DNA of 64,000 bases, taken from assembly GCA_963718995.1 (NCBI GenBank), contig CAVRAP010000006.1, positions 5,795 to 69,794 on the forward strand, given 5' to 3'. Every line of letters starts with the position of its first letter. The first letter of the stretch is position 1. Shown here one piece after another: positions 5,227-56,300 of this stretch. The DNA comes from an uncultured Actinomycetota bacterium (GTDB lineage Bacteria > Actinomycetota > Acidimicrobiia > Spongiisociales > UBA4744). Both the position numbers and the translations under genes were made by a program. Below the pieces are notes generated by a model. It saw nothing but the letters and a program-made list of their open reading frames with translations, did no database searches and was not told the origin of the DNA.

Positions 5227-6243
5227 GTGTCCGCCGTGTACCAGCCTTCCGACAACCGTTACGACAGTATGACCTTTGCCCGTTGCGGCCGCAGCGGCCT
5301 CGACCTGCCGAGGCTCTCGCTGGGCTTGTGGCATAACTTCGGTGGTGAGGGACTCTCGAAAAACGCTCGCACCATGCTGCTCAACTCCTTCGATCACGGC
5401 ATCACTCACTTCGACCTGGCCAACAACTACGGGCCGCCTCCAGGATCAGCAGAAGAGAACTTCGGCAAGATCATGGCCTCCGACCTGGCTCCGTACCGGG
5501 ACGAGCTGGTCATCTCGACCAAGGCCGGCTACCTGATGTGGGACGGACCCTACGGTGAATGGGGATCGCGCAAGTACCTGATCTCGAGCCTCGATCAGAG
5601 CCTGAAACGAATGGGTCTCGAATACGTCGACATCTTCTATTCGCATCGTTTCGATCCGGCAACGCCTCTCGAGGAAACGATGGCGGCTCTCGACTCGGCG
5701 GTGCGGTCGGGCAAGGCTCTCTATGCCGGCATCTCGTCCTACGGCCCGGACCAGACCCGGGAAGCTGCGGCCATTCTCAAGTCGCTTGGCACCCCGTGTC
5801 TGATCCATCAGCCGTCGTACTCCATGCTCAACCGCTGGGTTGAAGAGGGACTGCTCAACGTTCTCGAAGAGGAGGGCATCGGCTGCATTGCGTTCTCGCC
5901 GCTCGCCCAGGGTTTGCTGACGGACAAGTACCTCAAAGGTGTTCCGAAACGGTCCCGGGCCGCCCTCGGTGACTCGTTCAGCACCGAGCTTCTCACCGAA
6001 CAGAACCTGGCCAACGTCAGGGGACTCCACGAGATTGCGGCCGAACGCGGACAAACCCTGGCGCAGATGGCTATCGCCTGGGTTCTGCGTGACTCGCGGG
6101 TGACCTCGGCCCTGGTCGGCGCCAGCCGCTGGAAACAGATCGAGGACCTCCTCCAGGCCCTGGAACGCCCGGCTTTCAGCGACGAGGAGTTGGCCGCCAT
6201 CGACCGGTTCGCCCTGGACGGAGGCATCAACATCTGGGGGTAG
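5227..6243 (+). CDS. aldo/keto reductase (Tas/YghZ-like, L-glyceraldehyde-3-phosphate reductase type)
   Basis: AKR signatures: 'LGLWHNFG', 'FDLANNYGPPPGSAEENFG', 'ISTKAGY', 'YVDIFYSHRFDP' and 'ALVGASRWKQIEDLL'. Confidence 0.85.
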   Translation: MSAVYQPSDNRYDSMTFARCGRSGLDLPRLSLGLWHNFGGEGLSKNARTMLLNSFDHGITHFDLANNYGPPPGSAEENFGKIMASDLAPYRDELVISTKAGYLMWDGPYGEWGSRKYLISSLDQSLKRMGLEYVDIFYSHRFDPATPLEETMAALDSAVRSGKALYAGISSYGPDQTREAAAILKSLGTPCLIHQPSYSMLNRWVEEGLLNVLEEEGIGCIAFSPLAQGLLTDKYLKGVPKRSRAALGDSFSTELLTEQNLANVRGLHEIAAERGQTLAQMAIAWVLRDSRVTSALVGASRWKQIEDLLQALERPAFSDEELAAIDRFALDGGINIWG

Positions 6244-15937: not shown

Positions 15938-16123
15938 GGTTTCCAGTTTCCAGTTTCCAGTTCGTCCAGTAACCAGTTTCCAGTTATCAGTTATCAGTTA
16001 TCGGGTATCGGTATCAGAGAGTGGTATGCCGTTCGCTGGCTACTGGCTACTGGCTACCGGCTACTGGCTACTGGCTACTGGCTGACTGGCTGCTGGCTGC
16101 TGGCTACTGGCTACTGGCTACTG
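15938..16123. repeat. CAGT-core heptanucleotide tandem repeat array, inverted two-arm organisation
   Basis: Left arm (ccagttt)x3 then (tcagtta)x3 on the top strand. Right arm (ctggcta/ctggctg)x~12, which is (ccagtag)n on the bottom strand. Runs up to the stop codon of the MmpL gene. Confidence 0.9.
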
Positions 16124-20097: not shown

Positions 20098-21198
20098 TCA
20101 GGTACCGGCAACGAGAAGCGGAACCTGAAGCTCCTCCTTTGCCAGCCCGCCGTGATAGCCGGTCAGCCGCTTGTCCATGAAGCGGGGGATCAACAGGCGG
20201 CCCGGATCGGCAAGCAGGACCTTGTCCGGCAGTCGTCCGGCCAGGTCCGGATGGTCCCGGCCGGGCCCCAACCAGGTCCGGTACTCCGATGTCTCAACGA
20301 CCCGGCATGGCAGGCCGACGAGCGCCTTCGAGAGCTCGGCGTCGAACCGGCGCACCAGCACCGCTCGGGGGTCGCCGTAGAATTCTGGTCCCATCCGGTG
20401 CGGGATGAACGCCTTGTCGCCTTCGGCGTAGTCGATGTGCCCGTGATCGGCAGTTCCCACCATCACCGCGTGAGCCGGGAGGGCCGAGGCAATGCGGTCC
20501 CAGACGGCGGCCGCCGTCGAGATGGCTGCGGCGTACTCATCAGAGCCCTGGCCACCCACGTGGGCGGCCACGTCAACATTCGGGAAGTACGTGAAGATGA
20601 ACCGGCCGGGCACCGCAGCCAGCTGGGCGGTGGCGTCGATGATCTCGTTGATGGTCCACACGGCTTCATTGCGACATCCTCGATAGAGAACCCGGCTGAG
20701 CGGACTGTCCTGAAAGTTGCCGGGCTGCACGGTGATCGGCTCAATGTCATGGGCTCGCAAGCGCTGCCACAGGTTGGGGGCCGGCAGGAAGGAATCGTGG
20801 TCGAGGCGTACGGCTTCCCCCCAGGGTGTCGTCCACTTCAAGGTGTTCACGACCTGACCGGCGGCGGGAACATACAGTTGGTGCCCGATCAGACCGTGGG
20901 TCCCGGGCGCCAGCCCGGTGGCGATGGTCGCCAGGTTGGCGCTGGTCGTGGTGGGAAAGACCGCGTCGAGAGCCGCGGTCCGGGCGTTGCGGAGGGAAGC
21001 CGCCCCGGGGTGCTGGAGCTGGGCATCGCCCAAGCCGTCGAAAAGGACGAGCACGTAGGTGGCGGCCTCCGGGATGTGCCCGGCGAGGTGAGCGTGCAGC
21101 CGCTCGGCCGGGGCAGATCCGGTCAGGCGATGTTCGAGCTCCGCCATCAGGTTGAGCAGGCTGCCGCCGGCGTAGTCGGGAATGGAGGGTTCAATCAC
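20098..21198 (-). CDS. alkaline phosphatase-family (nucleotide pyrophosphatase/phosphodiesterase-like) metalloenzyme
   Basis: Metal-ligand pattern 'FDGLGD...T(T)(S)...DHGH' typical of the AP superfamily. GTG start at 21198. Confidence 0.6.
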   Translation of the reverse strand: MIEPSIPDYAGGSLLNLMAELEHRLTGSAPAERLHAHLAGHIPEAATYVLVLFDGLGDAQLQHPGAASLRNARTAALDAVFPTTTSANLATIATGLAPGTHGLIGHQLYVPAAGQVVNTLKWTTPWGEAVRLDHDSFLPAPNLWQRLRAHDIEPITVQPGNFQDSPLSRVLYRGCRNEAVWTINEIIDATAQLAAVPGRFIFTYFPNVDVAAHVGGQGSDEYAAAISTAAAVWDRIASALPAHAVMVGTADHGHIDYAEGDKAFIPHRMGPEFYGDPRAVLVRRFDAELSKALVGLPCRVVETSEYRTWLGPGRDHPDLAGRLPDKVLLADPGRLLIPRFMDKRLTGYHGGLAKEELQVPLLVAGT

Positions 21199-21307
21199 AG
21201 TTTCCAGTTTCCAGTTATCAGTTGTCAGTTATCAGTCATCAGTCATCAGTCATGAGTCATGAGTTATCAGTTGCCAGTTGCCAGTTGCCAGTTGCCAGTT
21301 GCCAGTC
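21197..21307. repeat. CAGT-core heptanucleotide tandem repeat array (unidirectional)
   Basis: (ccagttt)(ccagtta)(tcagttg)(tcagtta)(tcagtca)x3(tgagtca)x2...(gccagtt)x5. Lies in the divergent promoter region between 21198(-) and 21455(+). Confidence 0.9.
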
Positions 21308-26448: not shown

Positions 26449-26536
26449 TCAGTTTCCAGTTTCCAGTTTCCAGTTTCCAGCAAGGAGGCGGTCCTCGATT
26501 GCGGACTGGCTACTGGCAACTGGCTACTGGCTACTG
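26449..26536. repeat. CAGT-core heptanucleotide repeat array, inverted two-arm organisation, inside the nuo cluster
   Basis: (cagtttc)x4, then 'caaggaggcggtcctcgattgcgga', then (ctggcta/ctggcaa)x4. Fills most of the 163-bp nuoD-nuoH spacer. Confidence 0.9.
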
Positions 26537-34628: not shown

Positions 34629-36703
34629 ATGCCGGTAGACGAAGACAAGTCCCCGCAACGCAAGGCCGCCAAGAAACCCGCCGCCAAGAAACCGGCGGCG
34701 CCGCCCGCCTCTCCGGCCTCCCCGGCGAAACCAACCGCCGGAACGCCGGCCGCCCAACCACCTGCGGAGGCAGCCTCCGCCGATCTGCCCTATTTCAGCC
34801 TGCTCACCGAAGACGACCTGTTCCTGTTCAACGAAGGCTCGCACTTCCGGCTCTACGAGAAGCTGGGTTGTCATCTCGTCGAGGTAGAAGGCGTGGCCGG
34901 GGCCTATTTCGCTGTGTGGGCGCCGGACGCCGAGTACGTGTCGGTGATCGGGGACTTCAACTTCTACAACCCGGGCGAGCACCCGCTCAAGCCGAAAGGA
35001 GCCTCGGGGATCTGGGAGGGGTTCATCCCCGGGATCGAACAAGGCGAGACGTACAAGTTCCACATCGGCTCCAAGTTCAACGTGTACCGGGTGGACAAAG
35101 CCGACCCCTTCGCGACCTACTCCGAGGTGCCGCCCAAGACGGCCTCTCGCGTCTGGGATCTCGCTTACGAGTGGGGTGACGCTGACTGGATGAAGGTCAG
35201 AGAGGTCCATAACGCCCACAACGCCCCCATATCGATCTACGAGATGCACCTGGGCTCGTGGCGGCGGGTTCCCGAGGAGGGCAACCGGTCGCTCACGTAC
35301 CGGGAGACCGCTCCTCTGCTGGTCGAACACCTCCAGAAGATGAACTTCACGCATGTGGAGTTCCTGCCGGTCATGGAGTATCCGTTCGGTGGTTCGTGGG
35401 GATACCAGTCGACCGGCTACTTCGGTCCGACCTCCCGATTCGGTAGCCCGGAGGACTTCATGTTCCTCATCGACACGCTGCACCAGGCGGGGATCGGCGT
35501 GATCGTCGACTGGGTGCCTTCGCACTTCGCCACCGACGAGCACGGCCTCGGCTATTTCGACGGCACGCACCTGTACGAGCATTCGGACGAGCGCGAAGGG
35601 CTTCCATCCCGACTGGGGGAGCTGGATCTTCAACTACGGCCGCAACGAGGTGCGCAGCTTCCTCATCTCCAGCGCCATCTCCTGGCTGGACCGGTATCAC
35701 ATCGACGGGATCCGGGTTGATGCGGTCGCCTCGATGCTGTACCTCGACTACTCCCGCGAAGACGGCGAGTGGATCCCCAACGAGTACGGCGGCAACGAGA
35801 ACATCGAAGCGATCACTCTGCTGCGGCGGTTCAACGAGGAGGTCTACCGCCAGTTCCCGGACGTGCAGACCTTCGCCGAGGAATCGACCGCCTGGCCGTC
35901 GGTGTCCCGGCCCGACCTACATCGGCGGACTCGGGTTCGGCTTCAAGTGGGACATGGGATGGATGCACGACACCCTGGCCTACATGCAACTCGATCCGCT
36001 GTTCCGTCAGTACCACCACAACGACCTGACGTTCCGGGGTCTGTACGCCTTCACGGAGAGTTTCACGCTGCCGCTCTCCCACGACGAGGTGGTGCACGGC
36101 AAGGGTTCGCTGGCCGCCAAGATGCCGGGCGACGACTGGCAGAAGTTCGCCAACCTGCGCCTGCTCTACGCCTACATGTTCGCCCAGCCCGGCAAGAAGC
36201 TGCTGTTCATGGGCGGCGAGATCGCCCAGTGGGCCGAGTGGAACCACGACGGTTCGCTGGCCTGGGACCTGCTGGATTGGGAACCGCACCGCGGCATCCT
36301 CAAGCTGGTCGGCGACCTCGGCCGGGTCTACCGGGATGAGCCGGCGCTCTACGAGTGGGACACCGACGACCGCGGCTTCGAATGGGTGGAGGCCAACGAC
36401 TGGCAGGCGAGCACCCTCTCATGGTTGCGACGGGGCGGGTCGACCGACGACATCATCCTGGCCATCTTCAACTTCACCCCGGTCGCCCGGTACAACTACC
36501 GCATGGGCGTGCCGCGCGAGGGCCACTGGGAGGAGATCCTCAACACCGACGCCGCCGATTACGGTGGCAGCGGTCTGGGCAACCTCGGAGGGGTGGAAGC
36601 TCACAAGACCGGCGCCCACGGCCGGCCGTTCTCGGTGAATCTGACGTTGCCTCCCCTGGGGGCGGTGTTCCTGAAGAGTTCTCAGGAGCTGAGTTCCCCG
36701 TAA
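34629..36703 (+). CDS. glgB: 1,4-alpha-glucan branching enzyme with Ala/Lys/Pro-rich N-terminal extension (two apparent frameshifts near 35595 and 35915)
   Basis: GH13 motifs '[13 protein letters not shown]', '[17 protein letters not shown]', 'FAEESTAWP' and '[13 protein letters not shown]'. The three ORFs 34629..35720, 35650..36339 and 35717..36703 are successive frames of one gene. Confidence 0.8.
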
Positions 36704-36761: not shown

Positions 36762-38154
36762 ATGACTGATGGCTTTTCTCTGAAGCAGCGACTGATCGAA
36801 CAGATCCGGGTTGAGGGTCCGATGCCGTTCGAGGATTTCATGGCGGCAGCCCTCTATGACCCCGAGGATGGGTTCTTCACGTCCAAGTCTCTGCGGTCCG
36901 TCAAGTCCGGCGATTTCCTGACCAGCCCCGAAGTAAGCCCCCTCTTCGGCGAAACCCTCGCCAAGTTCGTAGACCAGGAACTCTCCACCCTCCCCCTCAC
37001 CCCCTCCCGCCGGCGGGAGGGGGAAAGAGAAACGACGCCCCGCCGCCCACGCCGGGGCAGGTGCCCTGACCGCGCGGGTCGATGCGCAGAACTCCCTCTC
37101 CCGCTGGCGGGAGAGGGTTGGGGAGAGGGTGGAAGAGGCCGCACGGAAGAAGACAGTCTCCAGCCAGGAAGACACCCCAGACTACGTCCTCCCCCGGCTC
37201 TGCCGGGGGAGGTGGCCCGGCCCAAAGGGCCGGGTCGGAGGGGGCAGGTCCCCGAACAGTCCGATCGAGAGCAGGACTCCCTCTCCCGCTGGCGGGAGAG
37301 GGTTGGGGAGAGGGTGGAACCAACCCCGCTCCTCGTCGAGGTCGGAGCCGGTTCCGGGTCGCTCCTCAAACCCCTCCTCGCCACCCTCGAGACCCCGATC
37401 GAGCCCTGGGCCGTCGAGGCATCCCCGGCCGCTCGTGAGGCTCTGGGAGAGCTGATCGATCCCGACCACATCGTCCGCACCCTCGACGATCTGCCCGACC
37501 ACTTCTCCGGCGTCGTGGTCGCCAACGAACTCCTGGACAATCTGCCGGTCGCCATCGCCGTCCGCACCGGTCATGGCTGGACGGAACGCTGGGTAGGAGT
37601 CCAAGACGATGATCTGGTCCTCGTCCCCGTCGACGCTCGCCCCGAGGTCGCCGACATGGGCCGAGCAATTCGGCCTCCCCGCCCCCGAACGAGGCCTGGT
37701 CGAGGTGCAACTGGCCGCAGCGGAGTGGCTGCAATCGATCCTGACCCGTCTCGACTCGGGAACGATCCTGTTGATCGACTACGGCGACACCGCCGAGAAC
37801 CTGGAGAAGCGGCGGGTGGAGGGAACCCTCCGCACCTACCGGGCCCACCACCTCGGCCCCCACCCCCTCGACGAACCGGGAGAGACCGACATCACCGCCG
37901 ACGTCAACTTCACGGCGCTGATCGATCGAGCCGTGCAACTGGGAGCGAGCATCGAGTACCACCGCCAGGACGACTTCCTCGACCAGTTCGGGTTGCGAGC
38001 CCGCCTCAGCAAACTCCGCCACCAAGAACTGGACCTGGCCCGCGACGGCGACCCGATGGAGCGATTGAAGGTGCGGTCCACCCGGACCGAAGCCGAGACG
38101 CTGCTCCACCCGCGTGGCCTGGGCGACTTCCGTGTCCTGGTGGTCCGAAAGTGA
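36762..38154 (+). CDS. MidA/NDUFAF7-like SAM-dependent methyltransferase (DUF185), interrupted in frame by a repeat insertion and carrying an apparent frameshift near 37660
   Basis: N-terminal 'PMPFEDFMAAALYDPEDGFFTSK...GDFLTSPEVSPLFGE', SAM site 'LVEVGAGSGSL' and a C-terminal part in ORF 37609..38154. The 606-aa ORF 36762..38582 is the N-terminal part followed by an out-of-frame run-on. Confidence 0.65.
36990..37330. repeat. three copies of a GC-rich palindromic element (core cctctcccgc-tg-gcgggagagg) inserted in frame in the MidA-like gene
   Basis: 'ctccctctcccgctggcgggagagggttggggagagggtggaa' occurs at about 37086 and about 37270. A variant 'ccctcccgccggcgggaggggg' occurs at about 37005. 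The insert translates to 'LPLPLAGEGWGEGG'. Confidence 0.8.
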
Positions 38155-38204
38155 GGGGCCGCCCAACTGGGCGGCCCCTCGACGATTGTTGGTTTGAGCG
38201 ATGC

Positions 38205-40430
38205 TTACGGCGTAAGCAACAGGGCTGCGTCGGCGGTGATGAACCCTGCACCGTCGGCGTCGCCAGCGTCACCTTTGGCAACACCCCAACAAATCTCCTC
38301 CGAAGCCCCCGAAGGTTCGAGGAGCACGGTCCTGCAACCATATTCCATCCCAATGGCAGCCTCCTCAAGGATGGTTTCGACCTCCCACTGTTCGAGTCCC
38401 GGGTTCTTCTGCAGCATGAGGGCTGCGATGCCGGCAACGTGGGGGCTGGCCATCGACGTGCCTCCGAGGAAGAAGTAATTCGTCTTTCCCCGGTTCAGTT
38501 GGTAGGGGCCGACGACCCACGACCCGGGGAGCGGCCACATCCAGATCCTGACCATCTAGCTCCCGACTGGAGAAGTCGGTGATGTAGTAGTCGCCAACGT
38601 CCGTCGGGTCCGCAACGTTCACGTTCCACCACCAGGAGCGATTCCCATCTGGCCACTCGCCAACCCAGCCGCTGGCCGCGACCGAGATCACCGGTTCGTA
38701 GGCACCCGGATAACCCATTCCGAGGTTGCCCTCGTTGCCTGCCGATGTGACGACAATCACTCCGTTCTCAATGGCGTAGTCGTTGGCTGCCCTCTCTACG
38801 GGCTCCTGGACAGGACCGCCGAGACTCATGTTGATGACGACTGGGCCGTCGAGGACACCATCCTTCTTCAAGTTGGCGACGTAGGTAATGCCAGCCGCTA
38901 CCACCGATGACCCCCATCCGGAGCCATTGTCGCGGCACTGTGACCGGGATGACCGTCGCCATCGGGGCTACGCCGTTGATCGGCGTGCCGCCCAGGCTGT
39001 AGCCCAGGATGGTGCTGGTCACGTGGGTGCCATGCGAGTTGGTGTCATGTTCCCACTTATTGGGCTGTTCGGAGATGTTTCCCTGCCCTCCTCCACCGCC
39101 GCCAAATGACTTCGCCAGGTCGGTCGCGATCCGCTCTTCGGGGAGGTTGCCCCACGTGTGCCATATACCACCGGTGTCGATCACGGACGTCAACGGCGTT
39201 GACCACGACTGGAATAACGCTTGGTAGAGCCCTGCGATTCCTTCAGGGGCGGTACGTTCCATCAGAGGAAGGAAGTCGCTGGGGACTGCCGTCTGCGCCA
39301 CCGATAGAGCCGTTCGCGACCTGATGATTGACCCTCAATGAACGGCTTGTCACCACCGTTGCTGCGAAGAAACCGTCAGATCCCGAAGGATGCTGCAGCA
39401 TTCACAGCGGCGGAGAGGTCATCGTCGATGGCTGACCGTAGCTCGAACCGAGGGACATGTTGATGGTGTCGATCAGGTCCTTGGCTTTACGGTCCACGTC
39501 GGGTCGACTGCGAACTCCATGCCCTGGATGAGCGCAATTCCCGAGCAAGATGTCGAAACGGACGAGCAAACCTTCACGGCGTACAGCTCGACTCCTGGAG
39601 CAACGCCGTTTTCGCCGCCGATGATGTCGGCGACATGGGTTCCGTGTCCGCCTCCGGGTCCGTCATCCGGCGGATAACGTCATCTGGTTCCTCGAGCGCG
39701 TTGCCCCTACCAACCCAGTTGGATCCAACGAAGTCGTAGCCTCCGACAACCTTGGCGGTCGGGAACGTGCCATCTTCGACCACTGTCGGGTTGTCGTTGG
39801 CGAAGTCGATACATCAGCTGGATTGCCAATGGGGTGCCACCGAGGGCGGCGTGGTAGTAGTCGATGCCGCTGTCGAGCACCGCGACCTTGACTCCAGATC
39901 CGTCGACGCCAGCGTTCTGAACGGCTGCTGCCGCCGATATAGGGAACCGTTTCGCTCAGGTCGAGTTCGTAATTGCCAACTTCCTTGATTCGCAGCAGAC
40001 CGATGAGTCGGAAGCCAGGTCGGTGAGCTGAGCAGCGTCGATCTTACGAACACTGCGTTTAGGACTCTCTGCGTACCGGCGAGCTCCTTGGCACCTGTCG
40101 CCGTCTCAGGCTGGCCAGGAATTGGTCTGCTCTTGCTGGGACCTCAACGAGGGCTTGCCGCGGCCACGGCTTGCCGCACTCGGCCACGGAGGCCGGTGAG
40201 CGCTCAACCTGATGCTGACGTCAATCTCGCCCGCGTCGCTCGACTCGAGAACGTCTTGTCGGCGGCGCTGGCCGTTATCGGCGAGTCCAGTTTGAGACCT
40301 CATCGAATCTGGCTCGATCGACTCGATCGGTGCTGCCTCTTCGCTCCGACGGTACGGCGAGTGCCAACATGGTCAAGAGCGCGACGATCAGTACAACGAA
40401 ACGTTTCACGAGATGCCCTCCTCGTATCTC
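38205..40430 (-). pseudogene. subtilisin-like (S8) serine protease, disrupted by multiple frameshifts
   Basis: The catalytic triad is split across frames: 'VIDTGG' and 'HGTHVTS' in 38768..39301, and 'GTSMASPHVAG' in 38205..38555. A putative signal peptide 'KRFVVLIVALLTMLALAVPSE' sits in 40275..40553. At least four frame changes. Confidence 0.55.
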
Positions 40431-42039: not shown

Positions 42040-42350
42040 GCCGCTGCGGTACTTGCCACCCTCTCCGCGTCGCCGCCTGTGGCAGCGACGCGCCTCTCCC
42101 GCTTGCGGGAGAGGCTGGGAAGGCGTGGTGTGTGTTGGTTGGGTGGGGCGGTCTCGCGGGAGGATGTCTTGCCACCCTCTCCGCTTCGCCGCCTGTGGCA
42201 GCGACGCGCCTCTCCCGCTTGCGGGAGAGGCTGGGAAGGCGGGGTGTGTGTTGGTTGGGTGGGGCGGTCTCGCGGGAGGATGTCTTTTCACCCTCTCCGC
42301 TTCGCCGCCTGTGGCAGCGACGTGCCTCTCCCGCCGGCGGGAGAGGCAAG
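42040..42350. repeat. tandem array (~2.7 x 118 bp) of GC-rich palindromic element containing cctctcccgc-tt-gcgggagagg
   Basis: Unit 'caccctctccgc.tcgccgcctgtggcagcgacgcgcctctcccgcttgcgggagaggctgggaaggcg.ggtgtgtgttggttgggtggggcggtctcgcgggaggatgtctt' is repeated. Confidence 0.85.
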
Positions 42351-48210: not shown

Positions 48211-48510
48211 ATGAATCGAGAGATGCGCCGCCTCCAGGAGCGCGAAGAGCGCCTGCAGAAAAAGCAGGGAAAGCGGCGACCCCAAAAACGACCCCAAAAA
48301 GGTCAGGAGCAGCTGAACTTCTTCGCCCGTGTGCGGAAGTTCCTGAAGGAAGTCCGGGTCGAGCTGAAACGAGTTTCGTGGCCGTCGCGCGAGCAGATGG
48401 TTGCTTTCACGACCGTTACGATCATCACCAGTGCCGCCGTGACGGTGTTCGTATTCGGATTGGACTTCCTCTTCAAAGAGGGCATTCTCTTACTCCTGGC
48501 GAGGAATTGA
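48211..48510 (+). CDS. secE: preprotein translocase subunit SecE
   Basis: Basic N-terminus and a single C-terminal TM helix 'FTTVTIITSAAVTVFVFGLDFLF'. Synteny with nusG. Confidence 0.85.
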   Translation: MNREMRRLQEREERLQKKQGKRRPQKRPQKGQEQLNFFARVRKFLKEVRVELKRVSWPSREQMVAFTTVTIITSAAVTVFVFGLDFLFKEGILLLLARN

Positions 48511-48515
48511 TCGAC

Positions 48516-49145
48516 ATGGCCAAAGTGGTTGAGGAACAGCAAGAAGAAGAGACCGGAGCGGACGAGGAGAAGGTTGAAGAAGCCCCCCGTCCGGTCAGTC
48601 CATTCGATCTGCCCGGCGACTGGTATGTGATCCATTCGTACTCCGGGTACGAGAACAAGGTGAAAGTCAACCTCGAGACGCGAACCCGATCAATGCACAT
48701 GGAGGACCGCATCTTCGAGGTGGCGATCCCGATGGAAGATGTTGTCGAGTTCAAGGGTGGTAAGAAAGTCACCACCCCGAAGAAGGTATTCCCCGGGTAC
48801 ATCCTCGTCAGGATGTACCTCGACGATGACTCCTGGTACGCGGTGCGCAACACTCCCGGTGTGACGGGTTTCGTCGGATCCGGCATCAAGCCGACACCTC
48901 TGGCCAGACGCGAAGTTGAGCGATTCCTGGGAGTCCAGGAAGAGGAAGAAACCAAGAAGGCCCCACGGTTCAAGCCGGCGTGGGAGATCGGGGAAAGCGT
49001 GCGGGTGGTAACCGGCCCGTTCGCCGATTTCAACGGCGTGATCGAAGACATGAACATCGATCAGCAGAAGGTGACCGTGCTGGTGAACATCTTCGGTCGG
49101 GATACCCCGGTCGAATTGGGATTCGGCGACATCCAGAAGCAATAG
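48516..49145 (+). CDS. nusG: transcription termination/antitermination factor NusG
   Basis: NGN domain '[14 protein letters not shown]' and KOW '[22 protein letters not shown]'. Acidic N-terminal tail. Confidence 0.9.
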
Positions 49146-49810: not shown

Positions 49811-50506
49811 ATGCCGAAGCACGGCAAGAAATACAACGATGCGTTGAAACTCTTCGACGCTACGACCGCCTATCCGGCCGCTGCGGCAGTTCAGCTGGTC
49901 AAGTCCATGTCCTTCGTCAAGTTCGATGAAACGGTCGAAGCTGTCTTCAAGCTCAGCATCGATCCCCGCAAGGCCGATCAGTTGGTGCGCGGCACCGTCA
50001 GCCTGCCACACGGCACCGGTAAAGATGTTCGGGTCGCAGTCTTTGCGCAAGGCGACAAAGTGCGCGAAGCCGAGGCGGCCGGGGCCGACCTCGTCGGCGG
50101 CGCCGAATTAGTTGCAGAATTCCAGGGCGGTCGAGCTCTCGAATTCGAAGTCGCCATCGCCACCCCCGATCTCATGGCCGAGGTCGGAAAGCTCGGGCGC
50201 GTGTTGGGCCCCCGCGGCCTGATGCCGAATCCCAAAGCCGGCACCGTCACGTTCGACGTGGGCAAGGCGGTCGAGGAGTTCAAGGCCGGCCGTATCGAGT
50301 ATCGCAACGATCGGTACGGCAATGTGCATGCTCCGATCGGCAAGGTCTCATTCACCGATGAGCAACTGGATGAGAATCTGGCGGCACTCACCGCCGAAAT
50401 TGTCCGGGCGCGTCCGGCGTCGGCCAAGGGGCGGTTCGTTCGCAACCTCTCGGTCTCGTCGACGATGGGTCCGGGGGTACGGGTCGACGTCGGCAAGATG
50501 CTGTAG
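49811..50506 (+). CDS. rplA: 50S ribosomal protein L1
   Basis: 231 aa with '[19 protein letters not shown]' and '[12 protein letters not shown]'. Confidence 0.95.
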
Positions 50507-50527
50507 ACAGTCTGGATCAGTTTTCAG

Positions 50528-50551
50528 TCGGGCGGCCCTCCGGGGCCGCCC
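50528..50551. terminator. stem-loop cgggcggccc-tccg-gggccgcccg followed by ctttgtt
   Basis: 10-bp perfect GC stem 22 nt after the rplA stop. Nearly identical to the hairpin after rplL. Confidence 0.6.
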
Positions 50552-50559
50552 GAGCTTTG

Positions 50560-51340
50560 TTGGTGGTGTGCCGGCCTGAGCTTTGTTGGTGGTGTGCCGT
50601 CCCCCCTCCGCCTCGCTGCGCTCGGCACCTCCCCCCTTCCTACTCACTTCGTTCGCAGGGGGGAGGGGTTCGCAGGGGGGAGGGCTTCGCAGGGCGGGGA
50701 GGGAGGTTGGGGAGAGGGCTTGGGGGTCCTCGTTCTCGAGCGAGGGCACGGTGGTTCCTTGGTGGGAACCTGGACTGACGGCGGTGCGAAGGCCGTCCCG
50801 CTGCCGCTCTTCTACGGCGATACGTCAGGGTAGGGGCTGTCGTATCGCCGGAGTGACACCGGTGCCCGTTCGTGCCTCGGTCTTGGGTGGGGGCGGTTGA
50901 CAACCACCCTTGGACAAGGACCCCCAAAGCAAAACGTTGAGTTGTCAACCGGAGTGTCGCGCAATGCGCGGCGTGTGTCTACTCGTTTTGGTGTTGAAGG
51001 TCTGCGGGTCTTTGTTGGTGGGAACCATCCCCCCTCCGCCTCGCTGCGCTCGGCACCTCCCCCCGTCTTGCTCACTTCGTTCGCCGGGGGGCGCGAGGCA
51101 TCCCCTCTCCGCCTGGCTGCGTCGGCACCTCCCCCCGTCTTGCTCACTTCGTTCGCCGGGGGGAGGGCGCGAGGCATCCCCTCTCCGCCTGGCTGCGCTC
51201 GGCACCTCCCCCCGTCTTGCTCACTTCGTTCGCCGGGGGGCGCGAGGCATCCCCTCTCCGCCTGGCTGCGTCGGCACCTCCCCCCGTCTTGCTCACTTCG
51301 TTCGCCGGGGGGAGGGGAGCGAGGCATCGACTTGGCGTTG
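50560..51340. repeat. ~0.8-kb block of GC-rich repeats in the rplA-rplJ leader (direct 22-bp duplication, inverted gttgacaac...gttgtcaac, and ~4.5 tandem ~64-bp units)
   Basis: Tandem unit 'ctcgctgcgctcggcacctccccccgtcttgctcacttcgttcgccggggggcgcgaggcatcccctctccgcctgg' from about 51030 to 51335. Related copies lie at 50600-50720. Confidence 0.85.
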
Positions 51341-51499
51341 ACCAACACCGATTGGTACTGTTTGGTTCACAACTCCAATACCTCGGCCGAAGACCGCCGG
51401 TGCCTCAGGGCTCAAAGGGAAATTCCCGCCTGCGCAGGTTGGACCTCACAAGGGGCCATTCGTCTTCGGCGAGGGCCCCCGTTTTGATGAGGAGGAGTA

Positions 51500-52609
51500 A
51501 TGCCAAGACCTGAGAAGGTCCAGGCAGTTGAAAAGATACGAGAGCAGTTCGGCGAAGCCCGGGCTACCTTCGTGACCGAGTATCGCGGTCTGACGGTCGG
51601 CGAGCAGCAAGAGTTGCGCCGGAGCGTGCGGAAGGCCCAGGGCGAGTACCAGGTTCTCAAAATGTCCCTGGCGCGCAGAGCTGTCGAGGACATGTCCCTC
51701 GAAAGCCTGTCGGAACTGCTCGTCGGACCGACCGCCCTTGCGTTTGCCAACCACGACGCGGTTTCGGTTGCGAAAGTCCTTCGGGATTTTGCATCCGAGC
51801 ATGACAAGCTGATCATCAAGGGAGGAATCCTCGGCGAGGTCTTTTTGCCGCCCGAGCAGATCTCTCGATTGGCCGACATTGAACCGCGAGACGTCTTGCT
51901 GTCCAAGATCGCCGGCGGTTTCAAGGCACCGTTGTCCAAGATGGCCGGATTGCTCGGCGCCAAGATACGTGACGCTGCATCGATGTTTTCTCAACTGCTG
52001 GAAAAGAAGGAAGCAGAAGCGCCGGAGGTTGAAGAGGCTCCCGTCGCGGTTGCCGTCCCAACCGACGTAGTGACTGAGGAGGCTCCTGCCGCTGTGGTTG
52101 AGGAGGTTGCCGAGGTTGTGACTGAGGAGGCTCCTGCCGCTGTGGTTGAGGAGGTTGCCGAGGTTGTGACTGAGGAGGCTCCTGCCGCTGTGGTTGAGGA
52201 GGTTGCCGAGGTTGTGACTGAGGAGGCTCCTGCCGCTGTGGTTGAGGAGGTTGCCGAGGTTGTGACTGAGGAGGCTCCTGCCGCTGTGGTTGAGGAGGTT
52301 GCCGAGGTTGTGACTGAGGAGGCTCCTGCCGCTGTGGTTGAGGAGGTTGCTGAGGTTGTGACTGAGGAGGCTCCTGCCGCTGTGGTTGAGGAGGTTGCTG
52401 AGGTTGTGACTGAGGAGGCTCCTGCCGCTAAGGCCGAAGCACCTAAGAAACCGGCACCAAAGAAATCGGCACCCAAGAAACCGGCACCAAAGAAACCGGC
52501 ACCAAAGAAGAAGCCCGCTCCCAAGGCCAAGGCCGAAACGAGTACGGCAACAGCAGATGCTGACACGGCACCTGCTGACGGATCCGACGACACCGCCAAG
52601 GAGGAATAG
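51500..52609 (+). CDS. rplJ: 50S ribosomal protein L10 with ~185-aa C-terminal extension (7 x 17-aa acidic repeats + PKK-rich basic tail)
   Basis: Canonical L10 core '[33 protein letters not shown]...'. Then ([16 protein letters not shown])x7, encoded by seven near-identical 51-bp units at 52069..52426. Then '[32 protein letters not shown]'. Confidence 0.9.
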
Positions 52610-52614
52610 ACACC

Positions 52615-52998
52615 ATGGCAAAGATGAAGACAGACGAGCTCCTTGCGGTCTTCGAAGAGATGACCGTGCTCGAGCTCAAGGAATTCCTCGACTCGTTCGA
52701 GGAGCGGTTCGATGTCACGGCAGCCGCCCCGATGGCCATGGCAATGCCTGCCGCGGCCGGAGCTGCCGCCCCTGTGGAGGAAGAGCAGGACGAATTCGAC
52801 GTCATGCTCATTGCCGCAGGCGACAAGAAGATCCAGACCATCAAAGAGGTTCGGTCTTTGACCAGCCTTGGTCTGAAAGAAGCCAAGGACGTGGTCGACA
52901 ACGCCCCGAGCGCCGTGCTCGAAGGCGTGGACAAAGAGACCGCCGAAAAGGCCAAGGCCCAACTCGAGGGCGCAGGCGCTACGGTCGAACTGAAGTAA
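52615..52998 (+). CDS. rplL: 50S ribosomal protein L7/L12
   Basis: Ala-rich hinge and C-terminal '[27 protein letters not shown]...ATVELK'. Confidence 0.95.
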
Positions 52999-53024
52999 TC
53001 GATTCGACTGCGTCGAATCTCAGT

Positions 53025-53052
53025 CAGGGCGGCCCTTCGGGGCCGCCCTGAC
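53025..53052. terminator. 12-bp stem / UUCG-loop hairpin (tcagggcggccc-ttcg-gggccgccctga), preceded by a second hairpin gattcgac-tgc-gtcgaatc at 53002..53020
   Basis: Read directly. Lies between rplL and rpoB, the classical attenuator position. Confidence 0.6.
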
Positions 53053-53165
53053 AGTTTCCAGTCGGTCGGCCTGCGGCCGACCTCTCAGTTTCCAGTATCC
53101 AGTATCTGGCTATCCCAGGCCCGGGTAACTGGTAACCGGCAACCGCCAACTGCCAACTGGCGACG
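53052..53165. repeat. CAGT-core heptamer array with internal palindrome ggtcggcctgcggccgacc
   Basis: 'cagtttccagtcggtcggcctgcggccgacctctcagtttccagtatccagtatctggctatccc...ggtaactggtaaccggcaaccgccaactgccaactgg'. Confidence 0.8.
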
Positions 53166-53328
53166 CTTACCCTTGACCTGGCCCTCCCGGATGCGGTAGG
53201 TTCTACTTCACAAGCCCCGCAGATGGGCAGCTGTTTGCGGATGCAAATCTTTAGTTGTCGCCTCGTTAGTCGCGTGCTAACCTGGCGTTTCGTCGTCTGC
53301 AGCCATCCCAGGGCCCAAGGAGCAACAC

Positions 53329-56300
53329 TTGACTTCGCGCGTCGCTGACCGCTTCTCTTTTGGCAAAATCCCCGAAGTACTACCACTACCCGACCTGCTT
53401 GCGGTTCAATACGAATCGTTTCAATGGTTCATCGAAGAAGGCCTGAAAGAGATTTTCGTTGGCATCTCGCCGATCGAGGACTTCACGGGCGAGCTTGCGT
53501 TGGAATTGACCGACCATCGCTTCGGCGACCCGCCGAGGACGTTGGAGGAATGCAAGGAACGGGACGCTCACTTCTCGCGACCGTTGTTCGTGACCGCCCG
53601 GTTCGTGAACCGCAAGACCGGTGAGATCAAGGAGCAGCAGGTATTCCTCGGCGACTTCCCGATCATGACCGAAAACGGCGTGTTCATCATCAACGGCACC
53701 GAGCGGGTGGTCGTCAGTCAGCTGGTTCGTTCGCCCGGCGTCTACTTCGACAGCACCCCCGACAAGACCTCTGACCGCGAGATCTTCACAACCAAACTGA
53801 TTCCTGGTCGGGGCGCCTGGCTGGAATTCGACACCGACAAGCGCGACACGATCGGGGTGCGCGTTGATCGCAAGCGCCGCCAGTACGTCAGCGCCTTCCT
53901 GCGCGCCCTGGGGATCGCAGATTCCGATGAAGAGATCCTCGAGTTGTTCAACGGTGCCGAGTCGATCCGCAACACGCTGGCGCGTGACACGGCGGCCGAC
54001 AAGGACGAGGCGCTGCTGGACTTGTACCGGAAGTTGCGGCCCGGCGAGCCAACCACGGTTGAGTCGGCGCGTGGTCTCATCCAAACGCTTTTCAAGAACC
54101 CGAAGCGGTACGACCTGACGCGAGTTGGCCGCTACAAGATGAATCAGAAGTTCGGATGGCCGATTCCCACGGACTACGACCCCGAATCCCAGGGCCTCCT
54201 CACCAACGACGACATCCTCGACTCGATTCGTTACCTCGTGCACTTGCACGCTGGTGCGAAGACGTTCCTGACGTCCGCGGGTACCGAGGTGCCCGTCCAG
54301 ACCGACGATATCGATCACTTCGGCAACCGGCGCATCCGGACGGTCGGAGAACTGATCCAGAATCAGGTACGCGTGGGTCTCACCCGACTCGAGCGGGTTG
54401 TGCGCGAGCGGATGACTACCCAGGATCCTGAGTCGATCACTCCGCAAAGCCTGATCAATATTCGTCCGGTGGTTTCCGCCATCAACGAGTTTTTCGGCTC
54501 CAGCCAGCTCAGCCAGTTCATGGATCAGCCCAACCCTCTGGCCGGCCTGACCCACCGACGTCGTCTCTCGGCGCTCGGTCCCGGCGGTCTTTCGCGGGAA
54601 CGGGCCGGATTCGAGGTACGCGACGTTCATCCTTCCCACTACGGGCGGATGTGTCCGATCGAAACCCCTGAGGGTCCCAACATTGGTCTCATCGGGTCAC
54701 TCGCGACATTCGCCCGGGTCAACCGGTACGGGTTCATCGAGACGCCGTATCGCAAGGTTGAAGGAGGGACGGTCACGAAGAAGATCGACTTCCTGACGGC
54801 GAGCGAGGAAGAGCGATTCGTGATTGCCCAGGCCAATGCGCCGCTGAAGGAGAACGGGGCGTTCCTCAACGACCGGGTGCTCGTGCGCAAGGCAGGTGGC
54901 GGCGGCGAGATCGATCAGGTGCCGCCCAAAGAAGTCGACTACATGGATGTGTCGCCGAAGCAGATCGTATCGGTCGCCACCGCCCTCATCCCGTTCCTCG
55001 AACACGACGATGCGAACCGGGCGCTCATGGGTTCCAATATGCAGCGTCAAGCCGTGCCGCTCCTTCGCGCCGAAGCGCCGCTGGTCGGGACCGGAGTGGA
55101 AGCCCGGGCCGCCAAGGATTCGGGTGACATGGTCATCAGCACGGTTGCTGGTGAAGTCGTCGATGTCGATGGCAACAGCATCGTCGTCAAAGAGACCGGC
55201 ACGAACGCCAAGCACACCTTCCCCGTGCTGAAGTTCATCCGCTCCAACCAGGGAACGTGCATGAACCAGAAGGCATTGGTGCGGGTCGGCGACAAGGTCA
55301 AGGTCGGCGACGTCCTGGCCGACGGGCACAGCACCGATCAGGGAGAGTTGGCCCTCGGGCGCAACTTGCTGGTTGCGTTCATGCCGTGGGAGGGCCACAA
55401 CTACGAAGACGCCATCATCATCTCCGAGCGTCTCGTCAAAGATGACGTGCTGACTTCGATTCACATCGAAGAGCACGAAATCGAGGCACGGGACACCAAA
55501 CTTGGAGCGGAGGAGATCACCCGCGACATTCCGAATGTTGCCGAAGAAGTCCTCCACGACCTCGACGAGAACGGCATCATCCGCATCGGAGCCGAAGTCG
55601 GACCGGGTGACTACCTGGTCGGCAAAGTGACCCCGAAGGGTGAGACCGAGCTGACCCCCGAAGAACGCCTGCTGCGCGCGATTTTCGGTGAGAAAGCCCG
55701 GGAAGTTCGCGACACGTCACTCAAAGTTCCTCACGGTGAGGCCGGCAAGGTCACCGACGTGAAGGTGCTGCGGCGTTCCGAGGGCTACGACCTCAAACCG
55801 GGTGTCAATGAGCTCGTGCGGGTCCATGTCGCTCAGCAGCGGAAGATCTCTGAAGGCGACAAACTGGCCGGACGCCACGGCAACAAGGGGGTCATCGCCA
55901 AGATCCTCCCTGAAGAGGATATGCCCTTCATGGAGGACGGGACCCCGGTCGACATCATCCTTTCGCCGCTGGGGGTTCCCTCTCGCATGAACCTCGGTCA
56001 GGTGCTCGAGACCCACTTGGGCTGGGCAGCCGGCCAGGGATGGGCTCCTTTCGAGTCCGATAGCCCGGCGGCGGTCGGGGCCAAGCCCTGGACCAGGGTG
56101 GCAACCCCGGTGTTCGACGGTGCCCGTGAAGGGGAGATCGCCGACGTCCTGGCGAACAGCTTCCCGAACCGGGACGGCCAGCAGCTGGTCGATGGGACGG
56201 GCAAGGCCTTTCTCACCGACGGGCGCAGCGGCCGGCGGTACGACCGTCGCATCACGATCGGGCAGATCTATATCTTGAAACTCGTCCACCTGGTTGACGA

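Follow-up and report, generated by a model that had tools for sequence, protein, structure and literature searches.

An acidic, repeat-bearing C-terminal extension of ribosomal protein L10 in an uncultured bacterium as a recently expanded example of a trait found across the Acidimicrobiia

The factor-recruiting stalk has ribosomal protein L10 as its scaffold, in bacteria normally one of the ribosomal proteins whose length is most conserved, and the question raised by the locus described here is what to make of an L10 gene, in an uncultured member of the Acidimicrobiia, whose reading frame runs on far beyond the expected end. The locus lies in a stretch of 64,000 nucleotides (contig CAVRAP010000006.1 of assembly GCA_963718995.1, forward-strand positions 5,795 to 69,794; hereafter the window, in whose own numbering all positions are given). 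The open reading frame (ORF) listing of the window gave a single uninterrupted frame of 369 codons on the plus strand at 51500-52609 (stop codon included), identified by family profile matches as rplJ and encoding a protein of ~38.9 kDa with an isoelectric point (pI) of 4.5. An earlier note on this DNA, made from its letters alone, had described an L10 with a long extension past the SQLLEKK at which the protein usually ends, and this description was borne out, the core matched by Pfam and NCBIfam ending at residue ~172 and the frame continuing to residue 369.

Residues 1-172 (51500-52015) were found to be a canonical L10 core. Pfam Ribosomal_L10 (PF00466) matched residues 1-98, scoring 91.6 bits where the cutoff is 22.8. 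Residues 5-171 matched positions 2-168 of the 168-position NCBIfam L10 equivalog NF000955 (157.6 bits; cutoff 85). The closest solved chain was uL10 of Mycobacterium smegmatis (PDB 5O60 chain I, 175 aa, E = 2.6e-35), of which residues 2-172 aligned to query residues 2-173 with one single-residue gap; residues 5-178 of Thermotoga maritima L10 (1ZAV) aligned to query residues 3-170. The L12-docking helix alpha8 (residues 130-172) was intact, near gap-free in its alignment to the M. smegmatis protein and of the same length in both. The gene order is rplK-rplA-rplJ-rplL-rpoB, with L11, L1, L12 and RpoB domains detected on both sides of the gene, and with domain, full-length equivalog match and gene cluster all those of the family, the ORF is a genuine bacterial rplJ.

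The extension beyond this core comprises residues 173-369, that is 197 residues (~19 kDa, pI ~4.1) and not the 185 first estimated. A non-repeated acidic linker (residues 173-190, 52016-52069) leads into a tandem array at 52070-52429, in which unit-by-unit listing in frame gave seven full 48-bp units (52070-52405) and a partial eighth (VTEEAPAA), amounting to 7.5 units as assembled. Tandem Repeats Finder (TRF) placed the array at 52062-52429 (period 48, 7.7 copies, 99% matches, score 708) and scored it as the strongest in the window. The seven near-perfect acidic units previously reported are therefore present, with the unit corrected from 51 bp and 17 aa to 48 bp and 16 aa, and the span from 52069-52426 to that of the full units plus the partial copy. 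The sole difference between units was a synonymous GCC to GCT change in units 6 and 7, in agreement with the earlier reading that only third positions differ. This repeat segment (residues 191-311) has a net charge of -36, and the acidic block lacks Lys and Arg. It is followed by a basic block rich in Lys, Pro and Ala (residues 311-345, 52430-52534), the local form of a motif, KPAPKKKAAPKAKA, conserved in the subclade; a 15-bp array within it (52439-52509; TRF, 91% matches) codes for PKK(P/S)A x5, and the block carries a net charge of +12 across 34 aa (13 basic residues, 1 acidic). The protein then closes with an acidic end (residues 346-369, 52535-52606) whose final residues are DDTAKEE, so that the order of PKK-rich run and acidic terminus was also as first noted.

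With units of 48 and 15 bp, both multiples of three and near-identical in their nucleotides, these arrays are coding tandem repeats. The remaining two frames of the tail region contain stops in every unit, so the open tail frame is not an artefact of composition. The tail was without any match in Pfam, NCBIfam or PDB sequence searches, no solved chain found in the PDB sequence search covered it, and an exact look-up found the window L10 protein to be absent from protein records.

Whether such a tail is peculiar to this genome was addressed by comparing L10 lengths among relatives, a check that had been proposed with the original observation. Using the full-length protein as query, the best 120 matches were all of 220-409 aa and nearly all ended AEEE, but a full-length query is biased towards tailed proteins and the survey was therefore redone with the core alone, taking one genome per species and keeping the best 80 of 374 relatives (core identity 56-96%). 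All 80 loci came from metagenome-assembled genomes, most of them labelled Acidimicrobiia and the rest Actinomycetota, Actinomycetes or unclassified bacterium, the taxonomy of relatives being throughout that of the labels on the metagenome-assembly records. Acidic tails of 12-242 aa were present in 67 of these 80 species-level loci, whereas nine were tail-less (seven proteins of 173 aa and two of 178 aa); three others appeared frameshifted and one was truncated by the end of its contig. An exhaustive HMMER search with the core against 1.84 billion cluster representatives gave a similar picture, most of the best 150 (36-87% identity) being 220-387 aa long with tails rich in Ala, Glu, Pro and Asp. 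When one of these representatives from a more distant branch, an L10 of the Acidimicrobiales type (P0218), was used as query, the best 120 relatives were all of 221-296 aa, with tails of 47-118 aa (A 40%, E 24%, P 12.5%), and those bearing an organism name were called 'Acidimicrobiales bacterium' (NCBI label). Acidic L10 tails are thus the rule across the class Acidimicrobiia, and the window tail is a recently expanded example and no one-off. No cultured tailed species was found among the relatives surveyed.

A precomputed Pfam match, PF27436.1, was observed on many Acidimicrobiia L10s, among them P0006, P0012, P0016 and nearly all of P0218 and P0273-P0390, and may model alpha8 or part of the tail.

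The tail-less proteins were monophyletic in 49 of 50 bootstraps of a neighbour-joining L10 tree, built on only 170 residues, and were nested among tailed proteins when the tree was rooted on M. smegmatis, which suggests that the tail was lost secondarily in this clade.

The survey also bears on the possibility that the long L10 is an assembly or annotation artefact, with a wrong repeat number or a missed stop or frameshift concealing a true L10 of ~19 kDa. The 360 bp of perfect repeats are hard to assemble, apparent indel errors occur elsewhere in the window (where a glgB-like gene is spread over three frames), and some repeat-number variants with identical cores may be short-read collapse; two contigs of 22,900 and 22,904 nt resemble one sample re-assembled. 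The frame nevertheless stays open across the repeats, and the tail and stop context beyond them agrees at every codon with that of independent relatives; 8.5 units are present in the nearest relative, on a 150-kb contig, and tails are carried by dozens of independent genomes, Mb-scale contigs included. An L10 of 387 aa was encoded identically by at least two independent contigs of Mb scale (1.71 and 2.09 Mb, with the longest on record 5.86 Mb), and such tails are therefore not a product of assembly. We consider it extremely unlikely that the window tail is an artefact.

In several public L10 gene calls (loci L008, L044 and L057; proteins P0124, P0130, P0140, P0145, P0148, P0173 and P0223) the acidic tail was seen to turn Arg-rich (RRLRR...) or to be fused to L12, and these calls are probably frameshift errors within a tail that is repeat-rich and prone to assembly error.

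How the tail reached its present form was examined in the subclade closest to the window (L001-L007), whose members share a layout of SQLLEKKE, variable acidic repeats, KPAPKKKAAPKAKA and a conserved acidic end; L009 and L022 have only a divergent Lys-rich block in place of KPAPKKKAAPKAKA. The length of the repeat unit was 16 aa in the window and in P0001-P0005, 8 aa (VVEEVPEA) in L007 and 19, 33 or 34 aa elsewhere, and more distant lineages have SPD/SAD repeats, Pro-rich PEAEAE runs or non-repetitive acidic sequence. Over the first 190 codons the nearest relative, L001, was 96.5% identical to the window in nucleotides (14 synonymous and 6 non-synonymous codons; 96% for the protein core), and the units of its array were mutually identical. 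Codon 2 of the unit was ACT (Thr) in every unit of the window and GCT (Ala) in every unit of L001, and this uniformity within each genome, together with a fixed difference between genomes, points to concerted evolution or to independent recent expansion. The tail had a GC content at third codon positions of 0.55 compared with 0.76 in reference (highly expressed) genes, and the unit uses rare T-ending codons, which indicates that the array is young. These data support recent expansion or concerted evolution as the origin of the array, as the earlier note had proposed from the near-identity of the units. Two scans of metagenomes for the repeat unit matched only the contig of P0005, which belongs to a set of identical cores followed by 3, 2 or 1 units (P0005, P0008 and P0017), although part of this variation may be the collapse mentioned above.

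Despite massive change in tail length among the relatives the frame was preserved, and so was the composition. Pooled tails consisted of A 27.6, E 25.1, D 11.1, P 9.1, V 8.5, S 6.1 and T 5.0%, with Ala, Glu, Asp, Pro and Val accounting for ~81% of residues and aromatics, Leu, Ile, Met and Arg nearly absent. The tails therefore evolve quickly by in-frame repeat gain, loss and homogenisation, with composition retained and sequence not. Pairwise ratios of non-synonymous to synonymous substitution rates (dN/dS) were mostly 0.15-0.8 in tails, with some pairs at ~0.7-1.4, and 0.01-0.2 in cores; because the tail values are mostly below 1 and alignment of such low-complexity sequence is uncertain, the constraint on the tail is, as far as these estimates go, relaxed yet not absent.

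Such a tail could have arisen by near-neutral growth, in which the ancestral rplJ stop was lost, translation read through the spacer to the Shine-Dalgarno (SD) region of rplL, the slippage-prone GAG/GCC-rich sequence expanded and contracted, and only harmless sequences (soluble, acidic and not binding RNA) survived, with no positive function. The hypervariability of sequence and length, seen even behind identical cores, would be expected on this account, as would a tail dN/dS several-fold above that of the core, loss of the tail in one clade, the unoptimised codon usage of the unit and the existence of two 178-aa intermediates (L032 and L034) that run straight into the SD. It fits less well with a tail that is kept class-wide, down to below 45% core identity, with a dN/dS below 1 in most pairs and with a basic motif conserved at the protein level in the subclade; a very abundant protein would, moreover, bear a substantial biosynthetic cost. 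Some 197 extra residues on a protein present once per ribosome are a few percent of ribosomal protein mass, and this cost would make the tail hard to keep class-wide if it were useless. Some function is thus favoured by the retention of the tail class-wide, by a dN/dS below 1, by conservation of the basic motif and by the residue cost, while its hypervariability and its loss in one clade speak for a weak one at most. Near-neutral growth, the main rival account, is taken by us to be a serious but rather unlikely explanation.

Part of the conservation at the end of the tail is explained by the neighbouring gene. The rplL gene (L7/L12, 127 aa, 52615-52998, plus strand; Pfam Ribosomal_L12_N and Ribosomal_L12) begins 5 nt past the rplJ stop, and its SD site, AAGGAGG (52598-52604), lies within the final codons of rplJ, 10 nt ahead of the rplL start codon. 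Nearly all tailed relatives were similarly arranged, their rplJ ending in GAGGAGGAA and stop (GCC GAG GAG GAA + stop) and their rplL ATG lying at -4 to +6 nt, while the 173-aa tail-less genes have an rplJ-rplL spacer of 25-38 nt containing an SD of its own and the two 178-aa genes read directly through to the SD. The last ~11 codons were conserved in close relatives including their third positions, pointing to constraint at the RNA level from the rplL initiation region, and the acidic end is conserved mostly because its terminal codons are the rplL SD. The basic motif behaved differently: KPAPKKKAAPKAKA, confined to the nearest subclade, was retained in L001-L007 across many synonymous changes in Pro and Lys codons, which implies constraint at the protein level.

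This arrangement allows a role for the RNA, whereby a GAGGAGG array in the tail mRNA would be a ribosome landing pad lifting translation of rplL over that of rplJ, the peptide being a by-product. GGAGG occurred 17 times in the window tail compared with once in the core (19 times in L001 and 18 in L007), rplL is tightly coupled to the end of rplJ, and L12 is required in several-fold excess over L10. Most tailed relatives, however, had only 0-5 copies of GGAGG, usually the terminal SD alone, and several Asp/Ser/Pro-rich tails had none; GAG GAG GNN is also simply what Glu-Glu-(Val/Ala/Gly/Asp/Glu) would be expected to give, 40 of 45 tail Glu codons being GAG (62% in reference genes). With so few GGAGG in most relatives' tails, the SD array was rejected as a general explanation, and for the window itself we give the RNA role hardly any weight.

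For the protein itself, an alignment-based AlphaFold2 (AF2) model (39 sequences) gave residues 1-172 with a predicted local distance difference test score (pLDDT) of 78-97, including the helix at 130-172, and left residues 173-369 as coil with no secondary structure (block-mean pLDDT 34-51). We think it probable, on the evidence of sequence and composition, that this is a real, translated and lineage-typical C-terminal extension of L10 which forms a polyanionic appendage of the stalk, kept for its composition, on a protein with an unchanged number of L12 docking segments. Selection for composition would be the most likely functional interpretation. Anchored at the distal tip of alpha8, the tail would reach out beyond the stalk end beside the L12 arms, a flexible and highly negative extension of ~19 kDa that would most likely work by its charge and bulk rather than by any specific fold; repulsion would hold it away from the rRNA, and it would set the electrostatic environment for the capture of translation GTPases. 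In the nearest subclade, the KPAPKKKAAPKAKA block may be a short binding motif that either contacts RNA or folds back onto the acidic block. The number of docking segments would be as in L10 of the M. smegmatis and T. maritima type, which form three-dimer stalks. It is plausible that charge contributes to the capture of factors; Ge et al. (2018) reportedly described charge complementarity of L12 with IF2.

Several points weigh against this interpretation. When the tail was modelled by AF2 from its single sequence it appeared as seven 14-residue helices split by Ala-Pro (pLDDT 66-75), with the basic block and acidic end as coil; the unit would be amphipathic if helical (hydrophobic moment 2.29, a value reached by 3% of shuffles), and a charge-hydropathy plot places the Val/Ala-rich acidic block on its 'folded' side. 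The presence of the tail on mature ribosomes is deduced from the gene, and post-translational trimming could remove it; its function is likewise suggested by where it sits and what it is made of. A purely negative filter, for sequences that are soluble and do not stick to rRNA, could account for the narrow composition with no positive role for the tail. One whole clade has lost the tail, which is thus dispensable in some backgrounds, and the terminal conservation is partly RNA-level, from the rplL initiation region, not protein-level.

The helical model would also be the starting point for a different function, in which the repeats are extra amphipathic helices docking more L7/L12 dimers, or a helical-repeat domain, and alter the stoichiometry or architecture of the stalk. 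L12 dimers bind an amphipathic helix of L10, as reportedly shown by Diaconu et al. (2005), and the seven predicted helices and the high hydrophobic moment would be in keeping with this, as would the alpha-solenoid-like packing suggested when Foldseek was run with the single-sequence tail model, where weak likeness to designed alpha-solenoids was found (TM-score 0.4-0.5) with no match at E <= 0.001. As only such weak matches were returned, the likeness to designed helical repeats was discounted as non-evidence. AF2 tends to idealise perfect repeats as helices, and the alignment-based model gave coil at pLDDT ~40 for the same region. The units of relatives are quite different and often Pro-rich, so they cannot share a seven-helix fold and offer no conserved docking surface, and the unit has only Val and Ala as hydrophobics in place of the Leu, Ile, Met and Phe of alpha8. 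We consider additional docking helices very unlikely, and the suggestion in the earlier note that the tail might alter L7/L12 stoichiometry was not upheld, with alpha8 intact and the tail sequence not conserved among relatives. The tail is, according to these models, probably flexible with transient helical propensity.

The surroundings of rplJ were otherwise those of a ribosomal protein and RNA polymerase cluster, the wider order being EF-Tu, tRNA, NusG, L11, L1, L10, L7/L12, RpoB and a long ORF at the position of rpoC. The NusG gene (48504-49145) encodes an acidic N-terminal extension of ~38 aa ahead of the NusG domain, and is thus a second transcription/translation protein with an acidic tail. 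A GC-rich hairpin, CAGGGCGGCCCTTCGGGGCCGCCCTG (53025-53050, plus strand), read from the sequence 3' of rplL, is a probable terminator or attenuator ahead of rpoB, and between it and rpoB lies a heptanucleotide-like run at ~53080-53160 similar to the heptanucleotide arrays (CAGTTNC, CTGGCTA, GTTTCCA) seen at 15939-16123, 21198-21306 and 26450-26480. Rfam, applied to the whole window with gathering thresholds and to 50480-53350 in E-value mode, found no L10 leader or other RNA in or around rplJ. The ~1 kb spacer between rplA and rplJ (50507-51499) is packed with C-run/G-run repeats, with arrays at 50548-50694 and 51026-51328, and the motif CCCCCCGTCTTGCTCACTTCGTTCGCCGGGGGG occurs there in four exact copies within a 72/149-bp tandem array; this exact motif was present in none of 83 fetched loci, and L001 (96% identical) aligned through the spacer but without ~157 nt of the array. 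A 116-bp unit at 42052-42347, present in 2.6 copies (96% matches), has similar CCCTCTCC...GGGAGAGG arms and may be the same kind of repetitive extragenic palindromic (REP)- or miniature inverted-repeat transposable element (MITE)-like element as that upstream of rplJ.

The glgB-like gene (34629-36703) begins with CBM48 and the first part of the alpha-amylase domain in frame 0, continues in +1 and ends with Alpha-amylase_C in +2, a splitting that reflects either indel errors typical of long-read assembly or a pseudogene. Its N-terminus is a K/A/P-rich extension of ~54 aa, present at 34629-34790 as had been pointed out, and this and the L10 tail were the only two K/P/A-rich stretches in all frames of the window. 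A long ORF at 36762-38582 contains Arg/Pro-rich nonsense and peptides resembling repeat elements (LPLPLAGEGWGEGG), and is probably a real gene disrupted by frameshifting or by inserted repeats.

If the tail is borne as proposed, an environmentally abundant and poorly cultured class would have ribosomes unlike textbook bacterial ones at a functional centre, and the tail would be a natural experiment on factor capture as a function of charge and bulk close to the GTPase-associated centre. As rplJ is used as a phylogenetic marker, the tail will disturb alignments, and in assembly its perfect repeats collapse easily. That the tail end overlaps the rplL ribosome-binding site illustrates how a coding extension can become locked to the initiation signal of a downstream gene.

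Compared with known systems, the protein shares its domain, long helix alpha8 and operon with canonical bacterial uL10 (M. smegmatis, T. maritima) over residues 1-172, but solved uL10 chains end 2-8 residues past the EKK whereas the window L10 runs on for 197. The archaeal and eukaryotic uL10, P0, has as its C-terminus a flexible acidic arm, rich in Ala, Glu and Pro, that comes off the stalk and ends in a hydrophobic-acidic peptide, shared with P1/P2, that binds GTPases; P0 also has extra helices for P1/P2 dimers. The likeness lies in an acidic Ala/Glu/Pro-rich arm on an L10 homologue, and in a hinge-like character given by the pooled composition and, in the alignment-based model, a pLDDT mostly below 50. 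The window L10, however, ends DDTAKEE, with no hydrophobics, and its L12 ends GATVELK, while the L10 of relatives ends AEEE, PAAE or GAAD; extra docking helices were absent from the alignment-based AF2 model and seven short ones appeared in the single-sequence model. Membership of the P0 type was rejected, there being no hydrophobic-acidic terminal peptide shared with L12. That the tail could still be a functional extra stalk arm convergent with P0, recruiting or pre-concentrating factors (or more L12 dimers through amphipathic helices), with repeat turnover tuning translation kinetics between Acidimicrobiia populations, is an idea that we put forward as speculative and improbable.

Other likenesses concern the basic block. 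HupB/H1-like actinobacterial tails are built of Lys/Ala/Pro-rich PAKK/KAAK repeats, and the spacer of TonB is acidic, then basic, and Pro-rich. The five PKK(P/S)A units are short K/A/P-rich repeats of the H1/HupB-like kind, and the acidic then basic order resembles TonB, but with PKKPA pentapeptides and block order as the points in common these likenesses are compositional only, with no evidence of homology. Pro makes up ~9-11% of the acidic block compared with every second residue in TonB, and a TonB-like rigid EP/KP rod was ruled out by this proline content.

In the full-text literature searched, no L10 tail or Acidimicrobiia L10 tail was described, a coverage that leaves out most subscription journals and so gives no proof of absence. 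Bacterial ribosomal proteins do carry lineage-specific terminal extensions, mostly predicted to be disordered, widespread among bacteria and of largely unknown function (Xue et al. 2022, PMC9534751), as does IF2 (Fer et al. 2026, bioRxiv 10.64898/2026.02.08.704698). The window tail differs from both in that it doubles its protein, sits on the factor-recruiting stalk and consists of perfect tandem repeats. Repeats of this kind are known from the amino-acid tandem repeats (aaTRs) of Borgs, which are in-frame, perfect and create disordered regions (PMC9879509), and which resemble the window array in a unit that is a multiple of three, near-perfect nucleotides, rapid lineage-specific turnover and a low-complexity product; the window array, in contrast, belongs to an essential housekeeping gene on a bacterial chromosome and not to an extrachromosomal element. 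The window tail is a young and vivid example of a class-wide trait that belongs to these known lineage-specific extensions and in-frame tandem repeats.

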